A stretch of DNA of 64,000 bases from Candidatus Chisholmbacteria bacterium RIFCSPHIGHO2_01_FULL_52_32 (GTDB taxonomy: Bacteria > Patescibacteriota > Microgenomatia > UBA1400 > Chisholmbacteraceae), in NCBI GenBank assembly GCA_001816585.1, contig MHCJ01000003.1:348228-412227 (forward strand), given 5' to 3'. How positions within the stretch are numbered: the first letter of the stretch is position 1; each line of letters begins with the position of its first letter. The notes below the pieces were generated by a model, which worked only from the letters and a program-made list of their open reading frames with translations, had not been told where the DNA came from and did not search any database. Below, piece after piece: positions 6,053 to 51,306 of the stretch. The position numbers and the translations under genes were made by a program.

Positions 6053-9016
6053 CTATTTAGCCGGTTTTCTTTCGTGCACCGGTTTAACCGCAAAGGCTTC
6101 CCCAAACTGAATCTTACGTGCCTGGGTTCTTTGTCTTACCTCGGTCTCGAAACGCTTCGGTAAATGGAACGGAATGGTCACGATTACTTTTTGGTTTCGG
6201 CTCGTTTGCAATCGTTTTCGCTCCTCTTGGATGCGCCGGATGAGTTCCCGCATTTCTCCTTCTTCGATCAGTTCCCTGGTTAACTTCGTATCTAAACGAA
6301 CGGCAAGCTCACCTTCTTCCTTCAGTACGATTGATTTGATGTTGAGTTCCTGTGACAGCAGGCTTACCAAACTCCGGTCAAACCGTTCTTTACATCCGCC
6401 TACCACTGCCTTGGCCAGGGGTTGACGTACCTTGATACCTGCATCTTTGCGTTCCCGATGACCCAGCTCGGCGATTTGGCGAAGAGAGGTCATTTTGCGT
6501 TCAAGTACCCTGTCGATTCTCTGCTTCTCTGCTTTTGGCCAATCCGCCAGATGGACGGACGGTTCCCCTGTCAGCTTGGTATAGATGATATCGGATAGGA
6601 ATGGCAAAAACGGTGCACACAGCTTGGCAAGATTCTCGAGTACTTCAGTGGCGGTCCAATAAAACGCTTCCTTCTGGGCTTTGCTGACTTGTGTGAAACC
6701 GACACGCTCCCGGCTACGGCGGATGTACCAGGTAGAGAAATCGTCAACTAAATCTTCGATCGCTTGGGAAGATTCAAAGGCATCGTAGTCCTCGAGAAAC
6801 CGGGTTACTTGGGTAATGGTAGTGTGGGTCCTTGAGAGTATCCAGCGGTCAAGTACACCGAGGACTTTGGGCTCGTTGCGGCCGGGTTTGTCAAGGCTGA
6901 GGTTGTTGATGACAAACCGGAATGAATTCCAAAGGATCAGATGGAACTGGCGGCGTACGTTTGCCGCGGCAGTGTATCCGAACAGCAGATTGAACTTTGG
7001 ATCCTGGCGGACATACATCCATCGCATGACATCAACCCCGATTTTATCCGCTCCCTCATTGAACTCCACGCTGTTCCCCCAGCTTTTATGCATGGGCCGG
7101 CCATCTTCTCCGAGCAGGGTCGCGAATCCGAGAACGGTATCTGCCGGCCGCTCGCCCTCAAGAACCGTGCTCATTGCGATGAGCGAATAGAACCAATTCT
7201 TGAATTGACCGGGAAAGCTTTCGGTGATGAGGTCAGCGGGGAACCATCGCCTCCACTCTCTCTTATCCGCCCAATAGAGCGGGGCTGACCGGTTGTCCTT
7301 TGCAATTGTGGAAAATGGGACAATACCGGCATCGAGCCAAGGGTTTCCCACGTCAGGAATTCTTTCCATGAGCGCACCACAGTTGTGACAATCAATCCTG
7401 ACTTCGTCCACCCAAGGCCGATGGGGGGAATGGCCTTTAAATTGATCCCATCCTTCCCTCGCTCTTTGCTTCAACTCCTCCTTACCGCCGACCACCTCAA
7501 AATTTCCGCACCTCCCACATTCCCAGATCGGGAGGGCAAGACCCCAATATCGCTTCTTTGAGATTAACCAATCCTGCATATTCTTGATCCAATCCAGCTC
7601 TCGTTTGAGACCAAAAGAGGGAATCCAGCGCATGGAACGGACCACCTTTCGCATAGGGCTGCGGAGGGGATCCATTTTAATGTACCACTCCGAAACCACC
7701 CGCCAGACCAGTTCGGTTTTACAGCGCCAACAGGCGGGGTAGCGGTGGGTGATCTTGGCGGTTTTGTGGAAAAACCTCCCCCCGTCCCGTGCCTTGACAA
7801 AATCGATCACGATCTGCGGATGTTTTTTGGCGTTCTCTCCCGAAAACTCTCCCATTCCCTCAAGATACGTCGCCGTTTCATCGATAACCTCGATGACGGA
7901 AAGTCCCTTGTCTTTTCCGAGTCGGAAATCCTCCTGCCCGGCGCCGGGAGCAACATGGAGAAGTCCGGTGCCTTTGTTTGCCATGACGAGCTCTTTGGCT
8001 TCGACGACCGTATGGAAGGTGGTCGGGCTTTCCTGCTTTGCCTCTTTTACCCTGGGTAAGTCATCGAACGGCCCTTCGTAGCGAAGTCCCACAAGCGATG
8101 TTCCCGGATGATCTTTGACTTTTTTGAAGCTTCCCGACTCGAAGACCCCTCGGATGAAGGACTCAAAATCCTCCTGCCCTTCAATCTGGTCTTCGCGAAC
8201 AACGATGATTGACTCGCCGCTTTGTTCGTTTTTCCACTCTCTGTAGGTGTACGCTGGATTTATCGCCACCGCGACGTTTGCGGGAATCGTCCACGGAGTG
8301 GTAGTCCAGACTAAAAGGCCGGTTTCTGTTCCGACGACGGGAAGCTTGAAAAAGACGGTCTCGTGCGTCAGCTCTTTATAGTCTTCCGTCAGCATCTCAT
8401 GCTGTGATATTGCCGTCCCGCATCGCGGGCACCAAGGCACCGAATCCCGCCCTTTATAAATCAGTCCTTTCTCATGACACTTCTTGAGGAAATACCAGAT
8501 CATGTAGTTGTTTTCGTTTGCGAGAGTGAAGTAGGAATGATCCCAATCCATGAAATATCCCAGCCGTTTTGACTGCTCGGTTTGAATCCTGGCAAAACGG
8601 TCGACCCTGGCTTTGCACAGTTCGACAAACTTGGCGATTGAGGCTTTTTTATCTCCAGGAACCAGATTTTCGATATCCTGCTTTTGTTTGAGGCCGAGTT
8701 CCTTTTCAACCTCAACTTCCACCCACAATCCCTGGCAGTCAAAACCGTTCTGAAACCGTTGTTTGAACCCCTTCATATTGTAAAACCGCTGCCAGAGGTC
8801 TTTATAGGTTCTCCCCCAACCGTGGTGCACACCCATGGGGTTGTTCGCCGTAATTGGACCATCGATAAAGCTGAACCTTTTTTGAGATTTGTCGTTCCGA
8901 TGGAGATATCGGTTCACTATTCCGGATTTTCCCCAAGACCTCAGGAGCTCTTTTTCTTGGTTTGGAAAGTCGGGTATCGCCCCAACGGGCGAAGGAACGG
9001 TACCTTTTGGAGACAT
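6053..9016 (-). CDS. ileS: isoleucine--tRNA ligase (archaeal/eukaryote-like type 2)
   Basis: The N-terminus FIDGPITANNPMGVHHGWGRTYKDLWQRFYNMKGFKQRFQNGFDCQGLWVE aligns with the type-2 IleRS HIGH region (FHDGPPFATG...GWDCHGLPVE). It also has DWLISKKRYWGLALPIW (IleRS DWCISRQRYWG box), a KMSKS-like HKSWGN, and is 987 aa. Confidence 0.8.
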   Translation of the reverse strand: MSPKGTVPSPVGAIPDFPNQEKELLRSWGKSGIVNRYLHRNDKSQKRFSFIDGPITANNPMGVHHGWGRTYKDLWQRFYNMKGFKQRFQNGFDCQGLWVEVEVEKELGLKQKQDIENLVPGDKKASIAKFVELCKARVDRFARIQTEQSKRLGYFMDWDHSYFTLANENNYMIWYFLKKCHEKGLIYKGRDSVPWCPRCGTAISQHEMLTEDYKELTHETVFFKLPVVGTETGLLVWTTTPWTIPANVAVAINPAYTYREWKNEQSGESIIVVREDQIEGQEDFESFIRGVFESGSFKKVKDHPGTSLVGLRYEGPFDDLPRVKEAKQESPTTFHTVVEAKELVMANKGTGLLHVAPGAGQEDFRLGKDKGLSVIEVIDETATYLEGMGEFSGENAKKHPQIVIDFVKARDGGRFFHKTAKITHRYPACWRCKTELVWRVVSEWYIKMDPLRSPMRKVVRSMRWIPSFGLKRELDWIKNMQDWLISKKRYWGLALPIWECGRCGNFEVVGGKEELKQRAREGWDQFKGHSPHRPWVDEVRIDCHNCGALMERIPDVGNPWLDAGIVPFSTIAKDNRSAPLYWADKREWRRWFPADLITESFPGQFKNWFYSLIAMSTVLEGERPADTVLGFATLLGEDGRPMHKSWGNSVEFNEGADKIGVDVMRWMYVRQDPKFNLLFGYTAAANVRRQFHLILWNSFRFVINNLSLDKPGRNEPKVLGVLDRWILSRTHTTITQVTRFLEDYDAFESSQAIEDLVDDFSTWYIRRSRERVGFTQVSKAQKEAFYWTATEVLENLAKLCAPFLPFLSDIIYTKLTGEPSVHLADWPKAEKQRIDRVLERKMTSLRQIAELGHRERKDAGIKVRQPLAKAVVGGCKERFDRSLVSLLSQELNIKSIVLKEEGELAVRLDTKLTRELIEEGEMRELIRRIQEERKRLQTSRNQKVIVTIPFHLPKRFETEVRQRTQARKIQFGEAFAVKPVHERKPAK

Positions 9017-10153: not shown

Positions 10154-10393
10154 CGTTTCCCCTTTTTGACGCTTACAAAGTGGATCACACTATACACGAT
10201 TCCGCGCGTTTTTCAAGCGGTCATAATCCTTAAATCGAACAACTTTTATCTTCTTTGAAAGCTTTATGTTCCCTCATTCTGCGGATTTTTTACCCGTGGC
10301 TTGAAAGGGATAGCGCATGGTTGACGCGTTGGTGGATTGGGGAAGGACCTTCGTCCGCCAGCCGGCGGATCTGGGTAGACCCTTCGAGTATCC

Positions 10394-11686
10394 TCAGGGT
10401 AGGAAGGATTTCACAAAGTCAATCACCTTAATGACCAGTCCCTTTCCCGGGAACCGTTCGATCATCCCGCCTAAACCCGGGAGACCAAGCTTCGATTTCC
10501 CGGCCGGGAGTTTGTGCGCTGCATAGAGGATGAGACCGCTTGCCACGGCGTAGGCCGGTGATTGAATTTCCTCGACAAGTCCGGACAGACCTTTGGGAAC
10601 TCCGATCCTGGTTGGCATCGAGAGGGTTCTTTTACATGCCTCGATAACTCCAACCGTCTGTGCTCCTCCCCCTGTCAAGACTGCGCCCGCGGGTATCTGA
10701 CCGGCAGCTCCAGACTTTTTTAACTCAATTCCGATCATGGTAAAGATCTCGTTTAATCTGGGTTTTATGATCCCTTCGATAAGCGTTTTCCGGGAGGCGG
10801 TTGAGGCTTCTTCCTTGAGGTTTAATTTCGTCAGATCGATTTCATCTTCCGGTTTTCCTTTTTCCTCCTCTTGAGGCTCACGCGTCTTTTTTGCTTCCTT
10901 CGAAAGGTAGCGCTTGATTTTCTCGGCACTTTCAACACTCAGCCGCATCCCGATTGCCAAATCCTTGGTGATATTTCGATCCCCAATGGGAAGTACCGAA
11001 GAATAGTTCAGGTTTCCCTCGATGTAAACCGCGATTGAGGTTGTTCCCCCGCCAATATCGATGAGTACAACCCCCAATTCTTTCTCCGTCTCAGTGAGGG
11101 CTGACTGCGCGGCAGCCAGTCCCGAAAAAATCATACTGACGACGTCAATTCCAATTTCACTCACACATTTCGAAAGATTGCGCATCACTGTCTGGGATCC
11201 CGTGATAAGATGCGCTTCTGCTTCCAAGCGCACACCGCTCATTCCGACCGGGTCTTTAATCCCTTCCTGAGAATCGACGATGAAACTTTTGGGGATGACG
11301 TGGATGATCTCGCGGTCGGAGGGAAGGGCGACCGCACGGGCGGCTTCGATCACCCGGTCGACGTCTTCTTCAGTAATTTCCCCTTCCGGCTCGGCAACCG
11401 CAACGACCCCTTTTGAATTCTGCGATGCGATATGGGCTCCACCGATTGAAAGAACGGCAGAGGTTACCGAATACCCTGCCATCCGTTCGGCAGCCTCGAC
11501 ACTCTCCGTTATTGAGGACGTTGCCTCCTCAATATCCACAATTTGGCCTTTTTTCACTCCCTTTGACGGGATTGCCGCCACTCCCATGACGTTAATTTTG
11601 TTGAACTCGGAACTTTCAGAAGCGATAATCGTTGTCACTTTTTCCGTACCGACGTCAATTGAGGCAATCATTTTGCTCTTTTGCAT
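10394..11686 (-). CDS. ftsA: cell division protein FtsA (actin-like ATPase)
   Basis: MIASIDVGTEKVTTII and VLIDIGGGTTSIAVY actin-fold phosphate motifs; lies between ftsQ and ftsZ. Confidence 0.9.
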   Translation of the reverse strand: MQKSKMIASIDVGTEKVTTIIASESSEFNKINVMGVAAIPSKGVKKGQIVDIEEATSSITESVEAAERMAGYSVTSAVLSIGGAHIASQNSKGVVAVAEPEGEITEEDVDRVIEAARAVALPSDREIIHVIPKSFIVDSQEGIKDPVGMSGVRLEAEAHLITGSQTVMRNLSKCVSEIGIDVVSMIFSGLAAAQSALTETEKELGVVLIDIGGGTTSIAVYIEGNLNYSSVLPIGDRNITKDLAIGMRLSVESAEKIKRYLSKEAKKTREPQEEEKGKPEDEIDLTKLNLKEEASTASRKTLIEGIIKPRLNEIFTMIGIELKKSGAAGQIPAGAVLTGGGAQTVGVIEACKRTLSMPTRIGVPKGLSGLVEEIQSPAYAVASGLILYAAHKLPAGKSKLGLPGLGGMIERFPGKGLVIKVIDFVKSFLP

Positions 11687-38176: not shown

Positions 38177-39255
38177 AGCTCTCCGATTTTGCCTCCGAAT
38201 TCGTTTATAAATCGTTTCTTGTCGAATCGCTTAGCATTCTGCTTGCATGCCGTCGGATCAAACGCCGATTCTCGAAATCCTTTCAGGGCGTTGACCAGCG
38301 ACTCCACCTTTTGTTGTGAAAAAAAGATGCCAGTTTTCCCTGCCCGGATGATCTCTGTCGCTCCACCTCCATTATAGGCTATGACCGGTTTTCCTGCAGC
38401 TTGGGCCTCAACGACGGAAAGGCCGAAATCCTCTTCCTGAGGGAAAATGAGGGCACGGCACTTTTGATAGTACAGAACAAGCTTCTCGTCTGTCAATTGA
38501 CCGACGAACGTCACCGTCGGTCCGGCAATTCTGTTGAGCTTCCCTGCCTGCAAACCTGTGCCGACAATAACCAGCGGCAAGCGGAGCGCGTTTGCGGCCT
38601 GAATCGCCAAATCGAGGCGTTTGTGCGGGACGAGCCGTGAAACCACCAGAAAATAATCCCTGACGGAAATGGTTCCCTCTTTTCGTTTACCAAATGCCTC
38701 CACTTCAACCGGTGGATAGATCACATCGGCCTCCCGGTTGTAATAGGTTTTTATCCTTGTTTGCACCGCCTTTGAAATTGCCACCAAGAAGTCCGGGCGC
38801 TGACTGGCAATCTTGTCCCAGTTTGTGAGGTACGAAAAGATCGGCTTCGTGAGCGGTCGCAATATCCTTGGAATTTCTTTCTGGTAGAGTTCTCTGTCAC
38901 TCCAGAGGTAGCGCGTTGGGGTTAATACGTAGCAGACATGAAGGGTTGACGGTTTGGTCAATATTCCCTTTGCATCGGCGCTTGTCACCGAGATGACAAT
39001 ATCAAAATCAGAAAAATCGAGACTCTCAAAGGCCATCGGGGTTAACCATGGATACAACTCGTGGGTACTGCGCGCCAGCGGCAAGCGGTTCAGAAAAGAT
39101 ACCCGAACGTCCCAGCCCTTCGTCCACCCCGCTTTCTGAGGATTGTAGACTGCGGTATATAAAGGAGCTTTCGGGTAGATCTCGTGCAGGGCTTTGAGCA
39201 CCCGTTCCGCTCCGCCGAGCTTGTTCGTCCGGTCATATACCAGTGCAAGGTTCAT
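38146..39255 (-). CDS. glycosyltransferase family 4 (GT-B)
   Basis: C-terminal E..G..VVEAQAAGKPVIA motif of GT4/GT1 retaining transferases. Confidence 0.75.
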   Translation of the reverse strand: MNLALVYDRTNKLGGAERVLKALHEIYPKAPLYTAVYNPQKAGWTKGWDVRVSFLNRLPLARSTHELYPWLTPMAFESLDFSDFDIVISVTSADAKGILTKPSTLHVCYVLTPTRYLWSDRELYQKEIPRILRPLTKPIFSYLTNWDKIASQRPDFLVAISKAVQTRIKTYYNREADVIYPPVEVEAFGKRKEGTISVRDYFLVVSRLVPHKRLDLAIQAANALRLPLVIVGTGLQAGKLNRIAGPTVTFVGQLTDEKLVLYYQKCRALIFPQEEDFGLSVVEAQAAGKPVIAYNGGGATEIIRAGKTGIFFSQQKVESLVNALKGFRESAFDPTACKQNAKRFDKKRFINEFGGKIGELWKKHQDILK

Positions 39256-39261
39256 AGGAGG

Positions 39262-39320
39262 GAGTATAGGGTATAGGGTATAGGGTATAGGGTATAGGGT
39301 ATAGGGTTTAGGGTTTAAGG
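39262..39320. repeat. heptamer minisatellite (GGGTATA)x5 (GGGTTTA)x2, a telomere-like G-rich repeat, between two minus-strand GT4 genes
   Basis: Tandem units read directly. Related to the array at 2152-2204 (shared GGGTATA unit). Confidence 0.9.
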
Positions 39321-39323
39321 GTC

Positions 39324-40478
39324 TTAACTCTGATCACGTTTACCGGAATGCGCTATGCCAACCTTTTCATACACGTCGAGAGTCTGCTCGGCAAGTTTCT
39401 TCCAGCTGAACTGCTTCACTTGCTTCCTGCCTGCCTCGATGAGCTTTTTTTGAAGCGGAAGATTTTTGAGGAGTTTTTGCAGCGAGTCGGCGAGATGCAC
39501 TTCCGACCGGGCATCCGTAAACAGGGCTGCATCCTGGTAAATTTCCCTGAAAATCTCAAGTTCGTTTGCAACGACAGGCAGGCCGCACGCCATGGCTTCC
39601 AGGCCGGTCAGTCCGAACCCTTCGGAGAGTGAGGGTTGGACCAGGCAGAGGGCATGTGCGTAGAGAAGTGCCAGATCCTGATCCGGAACAAATCCGATCA
39701 AGCGGACAAACTTCCCTGCATTCCATCTGTCGGTTTCCGCAAGCAATCGATTCAGGAAGACCGTTCTTGCGCTCGCGACAACCAATGTAACCCTGACTCC
39801 GCGTTGACTTAAGAGCTTCACTGCCAACGCCAAACGCAGGATGTTCTTGTGCGGGTACGCGCTGCCCGTGTAGATCACAAATGGCGTCGTGATTCCGTAT
39901 TTTCGGAGAATTTCTGCTTTTTTCCTCCGAGGGAAAAAGATCCTTGCGGGCGCCTCGTAGGTGACACGGATTTTTGCGGGCGCGACCCCGTGACTGTCCG
40001 CAAGCTTTTTTTGTATTACCCTGCTCGGAGCAAAAATCGCTTTTGCTGCCCGCAAGGCATGAGAAACAATCGCCAGATACCCGACATACTTTACGGCATA
40101 GACCAAGGGATTTTGCGTCGTTACCGACAGCCCACGGACATCATGCCAAAGTAGATCGTGGATGGTAACGACGAATGGCTTCCGGTACAGGAGCGGGACA
40201 TTGAAATGCGGCACGTGGAGGAGATCAAGCTTCGCGCGTGAAAAGATTTCTCCCAACAGCCATTGTTCTTCAAAGGAATAGTGGAGAATGTTGCAGGAAA
40301 CGACGGAGAAGTTTTCGGGAAACCGGAGCACTTGATCGTAGGGATGGCGCAAAAACACCGTGTAGCGGTTCCGCCGATCCAAGCTTTTCAGGCTGTCCAA
40401 AAGCTCCATGACGTAGCGGCCCAAGCCCGCGTGTTCTACTCCATAGAGTCTCGCGTCGATTCCAATCTTTAGTGCCAT
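39324..40478 (-). CDS. glycosyltransferase family 4 (GT-B)
   Basis: SEGFGLTGLEAMACGLPVVA motif. Confidence 0.8.
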   Translation of the reverse strand: MALKIGIDARLYGVEHAGLGRYVMELLDSLKSLDRRNRYTVFLRHPYDQVLRFPENFSVVSCNILHYSFEEQWLLGEIFSRAKLDLLHVPHFNVPLLYRKPFVVTIHDLLWHDVRGLSVTTQNPLVYAVKYVGYLAIVSHALRAAKAIFAPSRVIQKKLADSHGVAPAKIRVTYEAPARIFFPRRKKAEILRKYGITTPFVIYTGSAYPHKNILRLALAVKLLSQRGVRVTLVVASARTVFLNRLLAETDRWNAGKFVRLIGFVPDQDLALLYAHALCLVQPSLSEGFGLTGLEAMACGLPVVANELEIFREIYQDAALFTDARSEVHLADSLQKLLKNLPLQKKLIEAGRKQVKQFSWKKLAEQTLDVYEKVGIAHSGKRDQS

Positions 40479-45620: not shown

Positions 45621-46443
45621 ACACCAGCATTCGAAGCAGAGCGCCGGTCTTTAAAAGCACGCGTAATACGGGAGACTCCCATTTCGGCTTGTGCTTTGCG
45701 AATACGTACTTTACGGCTTTAAATTCTCCTAACCAGGCCGGTTTTTGGGCTCCGCCGCTTGACTTCTGACCGTAATGGATTATTTTTCCTTTCGGGGTGA
45801 TTGCGACCTCAAATCCGGCCCGCCTGGCTCGGATACAGTATTCCACATCCTCTCCGTACATGAAGATTTCCTCATCAAGGAGCCCGATCTTGTCAATCAC
45901 ACCCTTTCTTATCATCATCGCCGTTCCCCCAACCCATCCGGTTCGGTGCTCATTGAGATATGCCTTCGAATCGTTGACGTGATACGGCCAGAGGTACTTT
46001 CCCAACCACGGGATATCATCGATGAATAACATCCAAAAAGCGATGTTTGATAACCTGGGAAGAAAGCCTCCCTGAGGCTGAATTGACCCGTCCGGGTTAT
46101 TCAGTTGACAACTGGCGATTCCGACCTTCGGACTGCTCTTCATAAACTCTAAAAGACTTCCGATCGCATCATCACAAACTTTCGTATCGGAGTTGAGAAG
46201 CATGACGAACTCCCCTTTTGCTGCTCCTATCCCCTTATTGTTGGCTTTGGCAAAGCCGAGATTCTGCCTGTTTTCAACCAGGACCACTCCGGGGAACTTC
46301 CGTCTTACCATATCGGGTGATCCGTCGGATGAAGCATTGTCAATCACGAGAAGCTCCCAGGTTGGCTTGAGGCGGATTGATGCGATTGTTTCCGCGAGCA
46401 ACTCTTTTGTGTTGTAACTGACGATGATGATGGAAAGTTCCAT
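45556..46443 (-). CDS. glycosyltransferase family 2 (GT-A)
   Basis: LSIIIVSYNTKELLAETIASI, VIDNASSDGS, LLNSDT. Confidence 0.8.
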   Translation of the reverse strand: MELSIIIVSYNTKELLAETIASIRLKPTWELLVIDNASSDGSPDMVRRKFPGVVLVENRQNLGFAKANNKGIGAAKGEFVMLLNSDTKVCDDAIGSLLEFMKSSPKVGIASCQLNNPDGSIQPQGGFLPRLSNIAFWMLFIDDIPWLGKYLWPYHVNDSKAYLNEHRTGWVGGTAMMIRKGVIDKIGLLDEEIFMYGEDVEYCIRARRAGFEVAITPKGKIIHYGQKSSGGAQKPAWLGEFKAVKYVFAKHKPKWESPVLRVLLKTGALLRMLVFGILQGRKDAYAAYKEAFWMA

Positions 46444-46455
46444 GATCTTTTACAC

Positions 46456-46635
46456 GAGTTTCGCACTCAATAACCTCGTAATGAGGAGAGCGCGGAACAA
46501 ATTTCGCCGGCCCGCATAGGCCAGTCCGCCAGCTGGCGGACTGGTATGAAGTACAACAAACACGTGCTAATCTAGACTGCACCGTTTGCGACCAAGAAAT
46601 TTTCGTTACGCGATCTCCAAAATAACGCGAAACTC
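46456..46635. repeat. intergenic repeat element copy 1 (about 180 bp; 9-bp TIR GAGTTTCGC/GCGAAACTC; central 24-nt palindrome at 46521-46544)
   Basis: Near-identical to copies at 48057-48230 and 49996-50169. Read and aligned by eye. Confidence 0.85.
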
Positions 46636-46640
46636 GTGCT

Positions 46641-48113
46641 TTACTCGAACCTCAATTCAATAAGCAGTTTATCATCTCTCTCGGATATCCGTTCATAGGT
46701 CGGACCGTGGAATGCCTCAATGAGTTGATCGAGCGTTTGGGTGTTTGTCAGCACCAGCTTTCTTTGTGCCCCGCCGGTTGCTTCCCTTAGCAAAGCATCC
46801 GAAACCAGCGATTCCTTTTCTCTTGAGTAGCGCAAGGGAACGATTTTCCGATCCGCATAGAATGCAGCCACCGGAAGATAGTTGTCATCAAGAAGTATGG
46901 TTTCATCGGTGGAGGTTCTTTCCCTGGCAATCTGTGCCAACGAAGCCTCCGCGGCAACGGTCTCCGGAACGAAGATCGAACCCCTGTACCAAAGGATATT
47001 GAATGCGGCAATTCCAATCAGTCCCGCGGTCACTAACGCCTTAAGCTTTCCGGTTGCCGCGATTTCTGCCGCGAAGTATCCGATCAAGAGGGCAATACCG
47101 GGGTAGATCGGGATAAGGTACCAGTCATTTCTCATCCTGGCAATCGTCAGCATGATGAATGGGCCGATGGCCCAAAGAACCGGCAGCCAGAGGTTCTTCT
47201 TCTTCATGCTGTCTTTCAGGACAATGATCAATGCAAAGGGAAGCGCGGCAAACCACAGCTTCAGCCCGTGACGGAGCACCGTCACATACCAAAATGTTTC
47301 GGTTCCGGAGACCGGATTCGGCACGTTTGCTTTTGAGAGCATGTATTTAAGGAAGAAGTATGTAAAAAATCCCTCTCCGTGCCTTAGGTATGCGACCAGG
47401 TGCCAGGGGAGAAAAACGAGAAGAAATGCGACAAAGGACCAAGTGACATAACGCCGCGGGACAAGAAGAAACAGCGGCATGGGCAGTAAGCCCAATATCC
47501 CTTTTGTGAGGAATGCCAGGGCGGTACTTGCCCCGGTTATCAGATACCATCGGGAGTCCTTCCTGGCGGCTAAAAATGCAAAAACCGCAAGGCTTACAAA
47601 GAACGTCAGCATGGTATCTAAGTTGCCGGTTCTCCCCCGGTAGAGATACTGGACGGTCGTGGTCAATACAAGGCCCGCAAAAAGCCCGGCTGTGTGTGAA
47701 AATAGGAGTTTTCCGATCCGATACGTCAAATACACCCCTCCGACTGCAGCCAGGGCTGAGAAAATCCTTACTCCGAGTGTCGTTATCCCAAAAACCGTAA
47801 ACCAGCTTGCGACGAGCCAAAGATACAGGGGGGCGGTGGCAAACCAGATTTGACCGTTGTAGACGGGGGTGATGAAATCACCGGTCCTTGCCATGTTCCT
47901 GGCAATCACGGCATGCCAGGCCTCATCCCAGTTCGTCAAAAGTGTTGCGTCGAGTTTGAAGAAAAATACAAGGAGGCTTGCAAACATGAGAAGCGCCAAT
48001 TGGAGCTTCTCTTTCTTTCGGAGCTGGGACTTCTGTGGCTTATTCTTCGTATTCAAGAGTTTCGCATTCAATGACATCAAAGGAGAGCGCGGAACAAATT
48101 TCGCCAGCCGCAT
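46641..48113 (-). CDS. PMT_2/ArnT-like GT-C membrane glycosyltransferase (start codon uncertain; the first ~18 codons of the ORF are read from repeat copy 2)
   Basis: WDEAWHAVIARNM (DE...H...ARNM signature of the ArnT/PMT_2 family), polytopic. Confidence 0.7.
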   Translation of the reverse strand: MRLAKFVPRSPLMSLNAKLLNTKNKPQKSQLRKKEKLQLALLMFASLLVFFFKLDATLLTNWDEAWHAVIARNMARTGDFITPVYNGQIWFATAPLYLWLVASWFTVFGITTLGVRIFSALAAVGGVYLTYRIGKLLFSHTAGLFAGLVLTTTVQYLYRGRTGNLDTMLTFFVSLAVFAFLAARKDSRWYLITGASTALAFLTKGILGLLPMPLFLLVPRRYVTWSFVAFLLVFLPWHLVAYLRHGEGFFTYFFLKYMLSKANVPNPVSGTETFWYVTVLRHGLKLWFAALPFALIIVLKDSMKKKNLWLPVLWAIGPFIMLTIARMRNDWYLIPIYPGIALLIGYFAAEIAATGKLKALVTAGLIGIAAFNILWYRGSIFVPETVAAEASLAQIARERTSTDETILLDDNYLPVAAFYADRKIVPLRYSREKESLVSDALLREATGGAQRKLVLTNTQTLDQLIEAFHGPTYERISERDDKLLIELRFE

Positions 48114-48230
48114 AGGCCAGTCCGCCAGCTGGCGGACTGGTATGGACTACAACGAAAACTTGCTAATCATGACTGCACCATTTGCGACCAAGAAATTTCC
48201 GTTACGCGATCTCCGAAGTAAGCGAAACTC
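48057..48230. repeat. intergenic repeat element copy 2 (174 bp; TIR GAGTTTCGC/GCGAAACTC; palindrome 48117-48140)
   Basis: Aligned with copies 1 and 3. Confidence 0.85.
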
Positions 48231-48236
48231 GATGTA

Positions 48237-48842
48237 TTACTGAAAAAGCCGCGCTCTTCCCAGGCGATAATTAAGCTTTTCCACTCCCCTGTCTTTGATT
48301 TTTCTTGCCGGGACGCCACCGACGAGAGTTTTTGAAGGGACATCTTTCGTGACCACGGCTCCCGCCGCAATGATCGCCCCATCACCGACAGTCACCCCGG
48401 GAAGGATAATAGCACGAGGGCCGATGAAGACATGGTTTCCGATTGCGACCGGTGCCAGTTTCAGTTTGAAATCTTCCGTGTGGATGTCCCGGCTGGCGTT
48501 AAAAATCATGACTTCCGATGCAATATCGACATGATCCCCGATTGTCAATCTGTCCCTTCCGTCAAGGGTCGCGTGGTCGCCGATGATAGTTCCTTCGCCG
48601 ATGGCAATATTGGTTGGCTCGTAGACCCGGCATCCGAGGTGGATGAAGGATTTTCTGCCGATTTTGACTCCTGCTATTCTTAACAGCGTCTTGCGGAACG
48701 AATGGGAGGGAATATGCCCGAGGAACCAGAGGCAAGCAGTCCAGAATTCCGTCCAGTAGCTTCGGAACCGAAATCCGATCTTCGGGATTGCTTCTCCGAA
48801 ACTTAACTCTCGCCCCATTCGGTCTTTAAACGGCGATTTCAT
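48237..48842 (-). CDS. hexapeptide-repeat sugar O-acetyltransferase (WcaF/WbbJ/maltose O-acetyltransferase-like)
   Basis: Left-handed beta-helix repeats: IGEGTIIGDHATLDG, IGDHVDIASEVMIF, IGNHVFIGPRAIILPGVTVGDGAII. Confidence 0.8.
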   Translation of the reverse strand: MKSPFKDRMGRELSFGEAIPKIGFRFRSYWTEFWTACLWFLGHIPSHSFRKTLLRIAGVKIGRKSFIHLGCRVYEPTNIAIGEGTIIGDHATLDGRDRLTIGDHVDIASEVMIFNASRDIHTEDFKLKLAPVAIGNHVFIGPRAIILPGVTVGDGAIIAAGAVVTKDVPSKTLVGGVPARKIKDRGVEKLNYRLGRARLFQ

Positions 48843-49938
48843 GGAGGACCTCCAGGGTTTGGGCTGCAGCTTTTTCCCAACGAAACTTTTCGAGCTGTTT
48901 CTGATTTTTCACGAACATTTCTTTCCTCATTAGTTCATTTAGTTGAAGCGCCTCTGTAATACCTCTGGCAATACTTTTCACGCTTTTCGGATCTACTTTT
49001 ATCCCTAAGTCACCGGCGATTTCCGGCAGACTTGAAGCATTGGAAATCACCACCGGTGTTCCCACGGCCATTGCTTCAACGATCGGTATCCCAAATCCTT
49101 CATAGAGGCTGATGAGCACGAGTGCTCTTGCTCCCTTAATGAGTGAGGGCAAATCTTCATCGGACGCAAACCCTGTGAAAATAATCCGATTTTCAATTCC
49201 CCTCCTCCTGCCTTCTGTGATGATTTGTGAGTACATCCAGCCTGTTTTTCCAACAATGACTATTTTAAGGGATTTATTCTCAAGCGTGCCGATTGCCCGA
49301 ATCAAGCGCCTTAGGTTTTTTCTCGGTTGCAGCGTGCCGACGTAGATACAATAGTCTCCTTCAATACGGTACTTCTTCCGCACCCTGATTACCTCTGCGC
49401 CACCAGTCCGTTCGTTAAAACGGTCCCGGTCATATCCGGGATAGGTTACGGTAATCCTTTCCTCTGGTATTTGATAGTTTTTGATTATATCATTTTTGGT
49501 AAACTCGGAGATCGAAAAGATGTGCTTCGCTTTTAGGATCGAGCTTTTGGTCCAATTGGTCAGCTTATAGAGGTCATTTTTCCGAAACAGGTTCGGAAAG
49601 TGCAGGAAAGAGAGATCCATGATTGAAATAGCCAGGGGAACAGGGCAGAATTTCGGTGCATAATGTCCCGGCGTGAAAAAGACTGTCGGTTTTTTGGAGT
49701 GGAAATAGAGGTCAAGGGGAAGCCTCCAGCGCGTCCAGGCAAATCCGGGAGTGAGGACCCGGTATGACCAGGTTTCTGAAGGTTTGGGCAGGTCATATAG
49801 GGGCGGTTTTTTGAGGTATACCGTGAAGTGAGTCTCGGGTTCCTGTTGGTTCATCTCCCGCAACATTTCATAGGCATAGACGTTGCTGCCGACACGGTTT
49901 GCAACATTGGCTTCGTTGCCATCCACTCCGATACGCAT
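48826..49938 (-). CDS. glycosyltransferase family 4 (GT-B); true start taken as MRIGVDGNEA at 49938, and the upstream part of ORF 48826..50130 is read-through of repeat copy 3
   Basis: Typical GT4 N-terminus MRIGVDGNEANVANRVGSNVYAYEM and C-terminal EGFGIPIVEAMAVGTPVV. Confidence 0.75.
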   Translation of the reverse strand: MRIGVDGNEANVANRVGSNVYAYEMLREMNQQEPETHFTVYLKKPPLYDLPKPSETWSYRVLTPGFAWTRWRLPLDLYFHSKKPTVFFTPGHYAPKFCPVPLAISIMDLSFLHFPNLFRKNDLYKLTNWTKSSILKAKHIFSISEFTKNDIIKNYQIPEERITVTYPGYDRDRFNERTGGAEVIRVRKKYRIEGDYCIYVGTLQPRKNLRRLIRAIGTLENKSLKIVIVGKTGWMYSQIITEGRRRGIENRIIFTGFASDEDLPSLIKGARALVLISLYEGFGIPIVEAMAVGTPVVISNASSLPEIAGDLGIKVDPKSVKSIARGITEALQLNELMRKEMFVKNQKQLEKFRWEKAAAQTLEVLHEIAV

Positions 49939-49995
49939 ACAGTCTTTACAGTATACCCCACTTTTCCCTGGGAAGGGATTTTTTTTATCCTGCAT

Positions 49996-50169
49996 GAATT
50001 TCGCATTCAATGACATCAGAGGAGAGCGCGGAACAAATTTCGCCGGTCGCATAGGCCAGCCCGCCAGCTGGCGGGCTGGTATGAAGTACAGCAAACACGT
50101 GCAAATCATGTCTGCACCGTTTGCGACCAAGAAATTTCCGTTACGCGATCTCCGAAGTAAGCGAAACTT
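49996..50169. repeat. intergenic repeat element copy 3 (174 bp; TIR GAATTTCGC/GCGAAACTT; palindrome 50056-50079 with compensatory T>C / A>G changes)
   Basis: Aligned with copies 1 and 2. The palindrome ccagcccgccagctggcgggctgg has both arms changed compared with ccagtccgccagctggcggactgg. Confidence 0.85.
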
Positions 50170-50193
50170 CAGTCCTGTATACTCATCCTACCG

Positions 50194-51306
50194 ATGAAGC
50201 GTGTACAGAGCGCGTTCGTTTTGGTTCTGGTTTCAGTCATTGTATTGCGGATGGCTTTCATCTTTCTCCGCACCCCTTCTGTTTCAATTGACCATGAACG
50301 CCTTCGGTCCGTCTGGCTCCATTCCCAATACAACCTTGGGAAAGGATATGAGTTCTTCGGAAACATGCCAGACGAAGACCTGTATGCTTTTTCCGCACTC
50401 GAGTACGTCTCCGGGAAAAACCCGGTCCAGGTCAACTACGAAAATCCCCCGCTCGCAAAATACCTGCTCGGTATTTCTTACCTTGTATTCGGCAATATCC
50501 TTGTGGTTCAATTCATCGCCAGTTTTGGGATTCTTCTCCTCACGTATTTGCTCACCCGCCATCATTTCCTCTTGTCGCCCATTGCCTTCCTCCCTCCTCT
50601 TCTATTAGTGGTTGACCCATTGTTTGTGAAGGCCAGCACAACCGTTAATTTGGACCTTATTCAATTGTTCTTTGCGTTGGTTGCTCTCTACCTTCTCACC
50701 CTGCGACAACGGTCCCCCTTCCTTCTGTTCTTTCTCGGTTGTGCTATCGGCGGGATCATGGCCAGTAAGGTGTTCTTCGTTGGGCTTCTCCTGCTTGTCT
50801 ATTCCAGTTTTGTTCTCTGGCTCAATCGCACACCCAGATTGTTGAGCTCGATTGTACCGGTTTTCATCGGATGTTTGCTGGTCTATCTTGGGTCCTATGC
50901 GGTCTATTTTGCCTACCGTTCTCCTTCGGATTTCCTCAAGCTCCATATCGATATCATCCGTCTGTACCGCTCGTATCTTCCCGAGTATCCTTGGTTTGAG
51001 ATTTGGAGAATCTTACTGGTTGGGCAATGGCGTACGTGGTTTGCCAAGCCTTCGATTCAACCCGTTGCCGAATATTGGCTAGGCTGGCCTATTGCGGCCG
51101 TTCTTTCGGGGAGTCTGCTTTTATCAAGGCGGGCTTTACGGCTTCCTTGGCCGCCGTCAACCATACTTTTGGGGTGGGCGCTGGCCTATCTTCTGTTCCA
51201 GTCCGTCCATGTGGTTTTTCCCCGGTACCTTCTCCTGGTTTTACCTATTCTTTATGCTCTTTCTGCGATTCGCATCTCGACTTTGCCTCCCAAGATTCCT
51301 TCGTAG
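50194..51306 (+). CDS. compact PMT-like GT-C membrane protein (the only plus-strand gene inside the array)
   Basis: Polytopic, 370 aa; first loop has PDEDLYAF (DE motif) and YENPPLAKYLLG (the HPPLAK-type motif of protein O-mannosyltransferase-like GT-C enzymes). Confidence 0.5.
   Translation: MKRVQSAFVLVLVSVIVLRMAFIFLRTPSVSIDHERLRSVWLHSQYNLGKGYEFFGNMPDEDLYAFSALEYVSGKNPVQVNYENPPLAKYLLGISYLVFGNILVVQFIASFGILLLTYLLTRHHFLLSPIAFLPPLLLVVDPLFVKASTTVNLDLIQLFFALVALYLLTLRQRSPFLLFFLGCAIGGIMASKVFFVGLLLLVYSSFVLWLNRTPRLLSSIVPVFIGCLLVYLGSYAVYFAYRSPSDFLKLHIDIIRLYRSYLPEYPWFEIWRILLVGQWRTWFAKPSIQPVAEYWLGWPIAAVLSGSLLLSRRALRLPWPPSTILLGWALAYLLFQSVHVVFPRYLLLVLPILYALSAIRISTLPPKIPS

Follow-up and report, generated by a model that had tools for sequence, protein, structure and literature searches.

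What are the three similar repeats that occupy the gaps of a glycosyltransferase cluster in a compact bacterial genome, and how did they come to lie there? The cluster is found in the window, the whole 64-kb stretch of DNA that was analysed, from an uncultured groundwater bacterium, Candidatus Chisholmbacteria, with a genome of 1.16 Mb. In bacteria of the candidate phyla radiation (CPR) the genomes are tiny and densely packed with genes, and there is little description of their mobile DNA. It is very likely that the three repeats are copies of a MITE (miniature inverted-repeat transposable element), a small non-coding transposon, inserted at three gene junctions of the sugar-transferase cluster. 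The kind of element is well known; this MITE family, in a CPR bacterium, has not been described previously.

Structure of the three repeats

A repeat search and MAFFT alignment identified a single repeat family in the glycosyltransferase cluster of the window, with exactly three copies, all in the same orientation and all within 3.7 kb:

46453..46638, plus strand: copy 1 (c1), 186 bp, CACGAGTTTCGC...GCGAAACTCGTG, between the stop codon of a GT-C gene and the start of a GT2 gene
48054..48233, plus strand: copy 2 (c2), 180 bp, between the stop codon of a hexapeptide acyltransferase gene and the GT-C gene
49993..50172, plus strand: copy 3 (c3), 180 bp, in the divergent intergenic region between a GT4 gene (start 49938, minus strand) and a GT-C-like gene (start 50194, plus strand)

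The original prediction had located these copies correctly but not their ends, as the element reaches 3 nt further on each side. In the MAFFT alignment the conserved block of the three copies is bounded by GAGTTTCGC ... GCGAAACTC, and the consensus ends of the element are CACGAGTTTCGC / GCGAAACTCGTG. Pairwise identities are 87.1% (c1-c2), 86.6% (c1-c3) and 89.4% (c2-c3), in keeping with the earlier figure of more than 85%. The copies had also been said to fill the only sizeable gaps of the array, and this holds as well; the gaps that contain them are 197, 180 and 255 nt long and no other gap in the array of about 27 kb exceeds 76 nt. A search of the 64-kb window with an nhmmer profile of the element found no fourth copy. 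The G+C content of the element is 50%, equal to that of the genome.

The terminal inverted repeats (TIRs), predicted to be 9 bp long, measure 9-12 bp. They are perfect over 12 bp in c1 and over 9 bp in c2, the core TIR of c3 matches at 7 of 9 positions, and the 12-bp TIR of a copy from another genome (L008) matches at 10 of 12. Three internal features are shared by the copies and are given here with their coordinates in c2:

48082..48105, plus strand: left subterminal block GGAGAGCGCGGAACAAATTTCGCC, invariant; also at 46485-46508 and 50021-50044
48117..48140, unstranded: central 24-nt perfect palindrome CCAGTCCGCCAGCTGGCGGACTGG; also at 46521-46544, with a compensated variant in c3 at 50056-50079
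48192..48214, plus strand: right subterminal block GAAATTTYCGTTACGCGATCTCC, invariant; also at 46596-46618 and 50131-50153

The left block recurs, inverted and imperfectly, as the right block, with which it pairs, and the two blocks extend the TIRs. The left block shows the highest conservation within the family, and its 23-mer is also present in other Chisholmbacteria loci. The helix formed by the two blocks (helix 3) has 18 pairs, 17 of which never vary. The invariant blocks of about 23 bp are probably transposase-binding sites.

Each copy folds as one long hairpin whose central hairpin is GC-rich. When whole copies were folded and compared with shuffled sequences, z was -5.6 and -4.7 for RNA of the two strands and -5.6 for DNA, and none of 200 shuffles folded as well. 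The hairpin of the mRNA-sense strand has an energy of -67 kcal/mol (z = -4.7). The perfect palindrome in each copy and the compensating change in c3 were both recognised earlier and are confirmed; both arms of the c3 palindrome are changed (T>C and A>G) and pairing is kept. It had been suggested that this change implies selection. The change itself stands, but the covariation argument is weaker than proposed and is not significant, with 2 compensated pairs among 55 and 45 of 500 shuffles reaching 2. Where a DNA palindrome is perfect, templated repair can give rise to compensated changes without selection. A constraint beyond the decay of a selfish element is hinted at by the perfect palindrome with its two independent compensated changes, and by the invariance of the arm blocks.

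Target-site duplications and sites without the element

Each copy in the window is flanked by short direct repeats, the target-site duplications (TSDs):

46448..46452, unstranded: left TSD of c1, TTTTA, with the 4-bp core TTTA at 46449-46452
46639..46643, unstranded: right TSD of c1, CTTTA, which contains the TAA stop of the GT-C gene (46641-46643, minus strand)
48049..48053, unstranded: left TSD of c2, GTATT
48234..48238, unstranded: right TSD of c2, GTATT, which overlaps the TAA stop of the acyltransferase gene (48237-48239)
49988..49992, unstranded: left TSD of c3, TCCTG
50173..50177, unstranded: right TSD of c3, TCCTG, which directly abuts a conserved TATACT box (50178-50183)

The repeats flanking full copies are TTTA (c1), (G)TATT (c2), (T)CCTG (c3) and CTTA (L008). 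All four of these copies have a perfect 4-bp direct repeat at identical offsets, and the repeat differs from copy to copy. When the repeats are read as 5 bp, 18 of 20 positions agree, while the best of 20,000 flank shuffles reached 15 when all offsets were searched. These direct repeats of 4-5 bp were not part of the earlier description of the element.

The same gene junctions occur without the element in six syntenic loci of relatives (L022, L023, L024, L028, L030 and L031), and nhmmer detected no element in any of these loci. The GT-C/GT2 junction that holds c1 in the window is 11 nt long in L022 and 2 nt in L023, and the genes overlap in L024. For the acyltransferase/GT-C junction (c2) the lengths are 53 nt (L022) and 13 nt (L024), and the gap between the GT4 gene and its divergent neighbour (c3) is 66 nt in L028, 68 nt in L030 and 54 nt in L031. 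When the element and one copy of the direct repeat are subtracted from the window, gaps of 6, about 52 and 70 nt remain, which are similar to those of the relatives. With the element and one TSD excised at the c2 site the window is colinear with L022, and with c3 excised its alignment to L030 and L031 runs across the conserved TATACT box. Because the full copies carry TSDs and the orthologous sites are empty, the copies are best read as transposon insertions.

The sites without the element also bear on the single gene that runs on the opposite strand, 50194..51306. The original prediction suggested that this flip could reflect a repeat-mediated inversion. In four relatives without the element (L027, L028, L030 and L031) the gene is inverted in the same way, so the flip is not due to c3; in addition, c3 has matching TSDs on both sides, and the inversion must be given up. 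A composite transposon, in which c1 and c2 would bracket the GT-C gene, was also considered and rejected; a matching TSD of its own flanks c1 as well as c2, and the GT-C gene occupies the same place in L022, L023 and L024 without elements.

Confinement of the element to these three sites would have counted against it, but copies occur in other genomes. The L008 copy follows a carbamoyltransferase gene, has convergent stop codons on its two sides and is the nearest relative of c1 with 91.4% identity. Since c1 is closer to this copy than to c2 or c3, the copies in the window are not local duplications. Copies in L019 and L021 are placed between a GH18 and a PBP1A gene. Relative to the genes beside it, the L019 copy is oriented opposite to the window copies, and it has a diverged left end and no clear TSD. 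In one metagenome scan, only two full-length variants besides the window copies were found. Distant relatives with the same architecture lie downstream of rnhB in L009 and L012, where the central hairpin persists with a different sequence.

These contexts matter for the suggestion that the repeats are native to the cluster and co-regulate the GT-C and GT4 genes as a shared leader, promoter or operator. The copies do lie directly 5' of minus-strand start codons, as was noted at first, but c1 and c2 also follow a stop codon directly on its 3' side. Such a leader could have its protein-binding sites in the invariant 23-bp blocks. However, the TSDs and the empty orthologous sites in close relatives show the copies to be insertions, and neither context nor orientation is conserved, since the L008 copy lies between convergent stops and the L019 copy is reversed. 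No Rfam match to the element was found, even at E<=10, and no sigma-70-like promoter or terminator was found within any copy, the sole exception being a weak hairpin in c3. A common leader or regulator is therefore very unlikely.

Reading frames and gene starts

Two open reading frames, 46641..48113 and 48826..50130, run across the element in one and the same frame, and gene callers place start codons inside it. The peptide KFVPRSPLMSLNAK is encoded in both extensions, in agreement with the original prediction. Could the copies be paralogous N-terminal coding sequence of the downstream genes, or a local segmental duplication? The likelihood of this is close to nil. The copies are separated by indels of 1, 4 and 7 nt, which break the frame, and an in-frame TAA lies two codons ahead of the GT2 ATG in c1, as read from the sequence. 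Neither the extensions nor the peptide have a counterpart in the homologues compared, including those of the GT-C gene. A duplication is further opposed by the separate TSD of each copy and by the closer relationship of c1 to the copy in the other genome.

It seems instead that the element supplies start codons upstream and in frame, and that gene callers accept these and so give the genes false N-terminal extensions. JGI and ENA assign the GT4 gene a length of 408 aa rather than 370 aa, while the NCBI call starts it at ATG 49938. The GT-C gene is 490 aa long in all calls, rather than about 452-471 aa. Recognising the MITE thus corrects the starts of two glycosyltransferase genes.

Related elements and possible effects on expression

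MITE-like mobile elements were among the first candidates for these repeats, and the TSDs, the six empty sites and the copies in unrelated contexts elsewhere strongly support this assignment. The element is shorter than 500 bp and has no coding capacity, it has TIRs and TSDs that differ between copies, and it is present or absent at orthologous sites; these features fit the definition of a MITE in a review (PMC10969869). Prokaryotic MITEs (PMC10969869) such as QMITE2 of Coxiella burnetii share with it a length below 500 bp, the absence of an ORF, TIRs, TSDs, intergenic insertion and a very stable stem-loop over the whole length. QMITE2 is about 190 bp long and has TIRs, direct repeats and a long hairpin transcript (PMC10969869). 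Older copies of prokaryotic MITEs lose their ends or direct repeats, as in L019 and L009 here. They differ in being typically AT-rich, whereas the present element has 50% G+C and a low apparent copy number.

No sequence similarity to the known elements searched was found, and a literature search for MITEs in CPR bacteria gave no relevant report. The Correia elements (CREE) of Neisseria are likewise palindromic MITEs, of 100-200 bp, that are often co-transcribed with their neighbours. They are the model for the RNase III cleavage of a TIR hairpin and for the promoter effects that are invoked here as possible. Correia elements duplicate a TA target, contain an IHF site and outward promoters and exceed 100 copies, features that the element described here was not found to have. 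REP/BIME sequences, another early candidate, are likewise extragenic palindromes between cistrons and can stabilise the upstream mRNA. REPs are palindromes of roughly 35 bp, within a range of about 20-40 bp, and lack TIRs and TSDs. Their copies run into the hundreds, and RAYT tyrosine transposases mobilise them (PMC2817692). The present element, with 180 bp, TIRs, TSDs and a low copy number, is not of this kind, but it may have a side effect at the mRNA level. Chen et al. 2008 (PMC2516098, as cited in the review PMC10969869) describe Chunjie, a MITE from Geobacter uraniireducens, which also lies within an operon between genes and leaves the operon genes intact. Chunjie differs in its unrelated sequence and its dozens of copies per genome, while three copies lie inside a single glycosyltransferase operon here.

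How would such an element have reached the cluster? On this reading the MITE is a non-coding, non-autonomous DNA transposon of 180-186 bp with 12-bp TIRs, subterminal inverted blocks of about 23 bp and a central hairpin. A transposase encoded elsewhere presumably cut the element and joined it into staggered target cuts of 4-5 bp, and the direct repeats on either side would stem from the repair of these cuts. A scan of window ORFs lying outside 14.7-29.4 kb found no transposase and no autonomous element with matching TIRs; the scanned ORFs are housekeeping or glycan genes. There were also no phage, plasmid or viral-contig matches. In a very compact genome only insertions at gene boundaries would survive, which would explain why the copies lie on stop codons (c1 and c2) or between divergent promoters (c3) and form the sole large gaps. 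As this family shows, Chisholmbacteria have, or once had, active non-autonomous transposons; it also shows where a compact genome tolerates insertions, namely exactly on stop codons and between divergent promoters.

Effects of the element on mRNA or promoters are plausible. Insertion of c1 and c2 would have expanded junctions of about 6 and about 52 nt to spacers of 197 and about 237 nt. If co-transcribed, these spacers would place a hairpin of -60 to -67 kcal/mol within a polycistronic mRNA. Translational coupling should be lost at such a hairpin, which could serve RNase III as a target or hold up exonucleases, as reported for Correia and ERIC elements. At gene 50194..51306, c3 may take the place of the sequence upstream of the conserved TATACT box.

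It has also been considered that the host has co-opted the MITE, with the hairpin serving as an RNA-level module for intercistronic processing or stability (like Correia/RNase III, ERIC/RNase E and REP) that sets the expression of segments of the envelope-glycan operon. Such effects are documented for other MITEs (PMC10969869). The window copies share one orientation relative to the operon, the mRNA-sense hairpin is very stable, and the central hairpin is kept by the two compensated changes and, with another sequence, in L009 and L012. Co-option is nevertheless improbable, as six relatives have the same cluster but no element, the opposite strand would be transcribed in L019 and the L008 element lies beyond both stop codons. 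The non-significant covariation and the route through templated repair also weaken the case from the compensated changes.

The three MITE insertions within one surface-glycan operon may contribute to strain variation in envelope glycosylation. All five full copies adjoin cell-envelope carbohydrate genes (the GT cluster, GT4/carbamoyltransferase and GH18/PBP1A), which also favours co-option. A further and unlikely extension is a mobile structured module, with the hairpin and 23-bp arms under selection, that preferentially settles or is retained in envelope-glycan and peptidoglycan clusters of Chisholmbacteria, rewires operon expression and so varies surface glycans. The rewiring would proceed through processing sites, broken translational coupling and replaced promoter-upstream DNA. 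If true, it would mean strain-level variation of the surface glycans that these episymbiotic bacteria show to their hosts.

The repeat family and its fold

The repeat search found a single repeat family in the 64-kb window, with exactly three members (c1, c2 and c3) that all lie in one orientation. Pairwise identities are 87.1% (c1–c2), 86.6% (c1–c3) and 89.4% (c2–c3), in agreement with the original prediction of three copies more than 85% identical. The copies had been placed correctly but drawn too short. A MAFFT alignment of the copies gave the conserved block edges GAGTTTCGC and GCGAAACTC; conservation reaches 3 nt past the predicted limits on both sides, and the consensus ends are CACGAGTTTCGC...GCGAAACTCGTG.

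Copies of the element with their left and right flanks
46453-46638, c1, ahead of the minus-strand GT2 gene starting at 46443; left TTTTA, right CTTTA
48054-48233, c2, at the called start of the minus-strand GT-C gene 46641..48113; left GTATT, right GTATT
49993-50172, c3, between the minus-strand GT4 gene starting at 49938 and the plus-strand gene 50194..51306; left TCCTG, right TCCTG
Copy in another genome (locus L008); left GCTTA, right ACTTA

The setting is a dcw cell-division and cell-wall cluster together with a very long envelope-polysaccharide cluster, whose products include GT2, GT4, GT-C/PMT_2, Wzy_C, flippase, Bac_transf and NTP_transferase proteins. An exact-protein look-up located the window sequence in several groundwater metagenomes as well. 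As had been noticed, the copies fill the only sizeable gaps in the 27-kb array, in which the genes mostly overlap; these gaps are 197, 180 and 255 nt long and every other gap is 76 nt or less.

The perfect 24-nt palindrome is present in every copy, as is the reported T to C change in one arm of c3 matched by A to G in the opposite arm. The whole copy forms a single long nested hairpin on either strand, whether folded as RNA or DNA. RNA folds of -59.5 and -67.3 kcal/mol (z = -5.6 and -4.7) and the DNA fold (z = -5.6) were not equalled by any shuffle. It had been proposed that the matched c3 change reflects selection on the hairpin. The change itself is real, but covariation receives weak statistical support. 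RNAalifold applied to five distinct copies predicted 55 plus-strand and 65 minus-strand pairs, with compensated changes in just two pairs, both in the central hairpin (U-A to C-G in c3, C-G to G-C in L008), and at least two compensated pairs also occurred in 45 of 500 column shuffles. The helix of the subterminal inverted blocks has 18 pairs, 17 of which never vary, which indicates that the sequence itself is probably conserved there, as would be expected for putative transposase-binding sites. The terminal helix is decaying (84% paired). Distant relatives keep a central hairpin with a different sequence, and this hint is the best sign that the hairpin matters; templated repair can also keep perfect DNA palindromes perfect. 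The ftsA-ftsZ intergenic region carries a near-copy of the palindrome's core at 10355-10368 (CCGCCAGCCGGCGG), in DNA otherwise unrelated to the element.

Target-site duplications and empty sites

Each copy has a direct repeat directly outside its limits, and the sequence of this repeat differs from copy to copy. The four copies (c1, c2, c3 and L008) all have a perfect 4-bp core. When every offset from 0 to 8 was searched on both flanks, the best 5-mer register gave 18 matches out of 20, while the maximum in 20,000 flank shuffles was 15. An 8-bp target-site duplication (TSD) fitted no better than the 4-5 bp core. Flanking repeats of this kind are what transposition through a staggered cut of 4-5 bp leaves behind, and several IS families are compatible with a TSD of that length.

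The comparison loci were contigs that encode homologues of either the GT-C gene 46641..48056 or gene 50194..51306. In L022, where the GT-C protein is 67% identical, the order is acyltransferase, 53 nt, GT-C, 11 nt, GT2; in L023 it is GT-C, 2 nt, GT2, then Wzy. In L024 the junctions are two gaps, of 7 and 13 nt, and an overlap of 8 nt. L028, L030 and L031 match the window collinearly over about 20 kb (DNA identity of about 66% for L028), and in them the GT4 gene is separated from the divergent gene by 66, 68 and 54 nt, respectively. A profile of the element matched none of these six loci. With the element and one of its two flanking repeats taken out, the window gaps shrink to 6 nt at c1, 70 nt at c3 and, measured to the TTG at 47999 that homologues support, about 52 nt at c2. 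After this excision the c2 site is colinear with L022, and the c3 site can be aligned to L030 and L031 across a conserved TGTATACT box.

The element is thus inserted DNA that has terminal inverted repeats (TIRs) and TSDs and is missing at orthologous sites. With TIRs, copy-specific TSDs and empty orthologous sites, the MITE reading is upheld among those first offered. MITEs themselves are well known; this family of Candidatus Chisholmbacteria is previously undescribed. No transposase was found among the window ORFs scanned, and the element would be mobilised in trans by a putative DDE-type transposase. The idea that c1 and c2 are the ends of a composite transposon carrying the GT-C gene was rejected, since each copy has its own TSD and the GT-C gene is present without elements in relatives. 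Retrons, DGRs, IS200/605-PATE elements, bridge RNAs and omega RNAs were dropped, as no associated protein gene lies nearby and none of them is known to make variable TSDs.

The GT-C gene between c1 and c2 (46641-48056) is itself a presence/absence polymorphism of a glycosyltransferase. It is present in L022, L023 and L024 and missing from L028, L030 and L031, where GT2 is directly followed by the acyltransferase gene (L028 8090-8232, L030 8156-8230, L031 8214-8247). Its loss from L028 by recombination between MITE copies was rejected, since there is no solo element at the site, just an unrelated AT-rich spacer. Two such AT-rich, internally palindromic spacers of the TTTAAAGTTTAAA type occupy gaps of this sibling cluster (8090-8232 and 11126-11273). 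The first ends in ACTCGTG, 4 nt from the acyltransferase stop; at the c2 site the right tip of the window element has a similar sequence. In the closest relative, L027, the gap between the GT4 and divergent genes is 170 nt (704-873) and contains an unrelated inverted repeat of 14 bp, CACACCAGAATGTGCG...CGCACATCTGGTGT. This repeat may mark a separate small palindromic insertion at the same position.

Family members in other genomes

Other copies were sought by an exact-pattern scan of large sequence collections. In L008 the full-length copy belongs to a GT4 cluster, where it lies 3' of a carbamoyltransferase gene and fits exactly between the stop codons of two convergent genes. L019 has a full-length copy between a GH18 gene and a PBP1A gene, both strand-reversed relative to the window arrangement, and L021 also has one beside a PBP1A gene. 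The element and PBP1A are common to both (L019 1080, L021 3041), whereas the upstream gene is GH18 in L019 and aldehyde dehydrogenase in L021. This difference could be strain recombination or chimeric assembly. It is uninformative as a test of the element boundary because the shared sequence starts within the upstream gene, 33 nt before its stop codon. Since c1 is nearer to the L008 copy (91.4%) than to c2 or c3, and right-arm variants are common to c2, c3 and L019, the window copies represent two subfamilies and not local duplications.

The reading as a shared cis-regulatory region or leader, native to the genes downstream, was abandoned: the element is missing in relatives, and its orientation and context are not constant. 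The REP/BIME-like reading fails on size and ends, which are unlike those of REP. An Rfam scan of the window at the gathering threshold and one of the region at E<=10 gave nothing credible, and a scan of six related loci at E<=1 gave a chance snoRNA match only. No promoter-like site was found inside c1, c2 or c3, and a terminator scan of the copies found one weak terminator-like hairpin, in c3 only.

A more distant relative, with TIRs GAGTTTGCGC/GCGCAAGCTC, is found 3' of rnhB in L009 (1308-1498), and L012 has a partial counterpart of it. This relative is built in the same way around a different, shorter central hairpin, and its own fold has z = -3.4. The exact left-arm 23-mer GAGAGCGCGGAACAAATTTCGCC occurs just 3' of rnhB in three Chisholmbacteria-like genomes in different context (L001/L012 about 6625-6950, minus orientation; L009 1240-1500; L020 60-130), followed by more GCGCG..ACAAATTTGCGC motifs and a diverged full element. 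This region looks like old insertions nested together or like a candidate conserved binding site. Six other loci (L010, L011, L014, L015, L017 and L018) share a 19-mer only and were set aside as chance or unrelated matches. Viral contigs scanned for the palindrome and both arm blocks gave 0 matches, and distant blastn searches against plasmids and phages matched nothing. The family illustrates that mobile DNA occurs in the streamlined genome of a candidate-phyla-radiation (CPR) bacterium, which alone is no surprise for specialists.

Gene starts and the divergent gene

Recognition of the MITE is useful for gene-start correction. The ATG at 48113 chosen for the GT-C gene by every gene caller does lie inside c2, as suspected; the residues it adds occur in no homologue, and homology starts only near 47990-48010. 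The start could plausibly be either the TTG at 47999, equivalent to the start called in L022, or the TTG at 48054-48056 made by the element's own terminal CAA. The original prediction of spurious N-terminal extensions holds, since the extension peptide has no counterpart in six GT-C homologues. The copies are not coding sequence, as this result, a TAA two codons ahead of the GT2 ATG in c1 and indels of 1, 4 and 7 nt between copies show. If co-transcribed, c1 and c2 would separate once tightly packed cistrons by a hairpin of -60 to -67 kcal/mol.

Gene 50194..51306, named hypothetical protein by NCBI, is a real GT39/GT-C-like gene that shares 55 nt at its 3' end with the convergent GT4 gene. Repeat-mediated inversion had been suggested as a possible cause of its strand flip. 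The counterpart in the distant L024 (4964-6139) is co-oriented with the array, but the gene is inverted in L027, L028, L030 and L031, all without the element. Because these relatives are inverted too and the c3 TSDs are intact and matching, the inversion predates c3 and is not connected with it.

TATACT boxes lie 10-12 nt 5' of both divergent starts (49950-49955 on the complementary strand, and 50178-50183), and 6-7 nt 5' of the starts in L030 and L031 (boxes near 9935-10000 in L028, L030 and L031). On the plus side, the window, L030 and L031 have a TG ahead of the box; L028 shows a clear box on the GT4 side only. Their positions suggest putative promoters giving leaderless or very short-leader mRNAs. 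c3 sits 1 nt 5' of the TG-TATACT box that belongs to gene 50194..51306 and so would have replaced the DNA previously upstream of that putative -10 element, while the GT4 gene's putative -10 box at 49950-49955 and its upstream DNA would stay intact. Just left of c3, a G+C-rich hairpin followed by eight T (49961-49986; CTTTTCCCTGGGAAGGG ATTTTTTTT) looks like a predicted plus-strand terminator. Tandem heptamers, (GGGTTGA/GGGTATA/GGGTTTA)n, occupy two intergenic stretches, 2132-2223 and 39235-39326, one of them the array's 68-nt gap; an AT-rich spacer of L028 begins with a similar tagggtttaggg motif.
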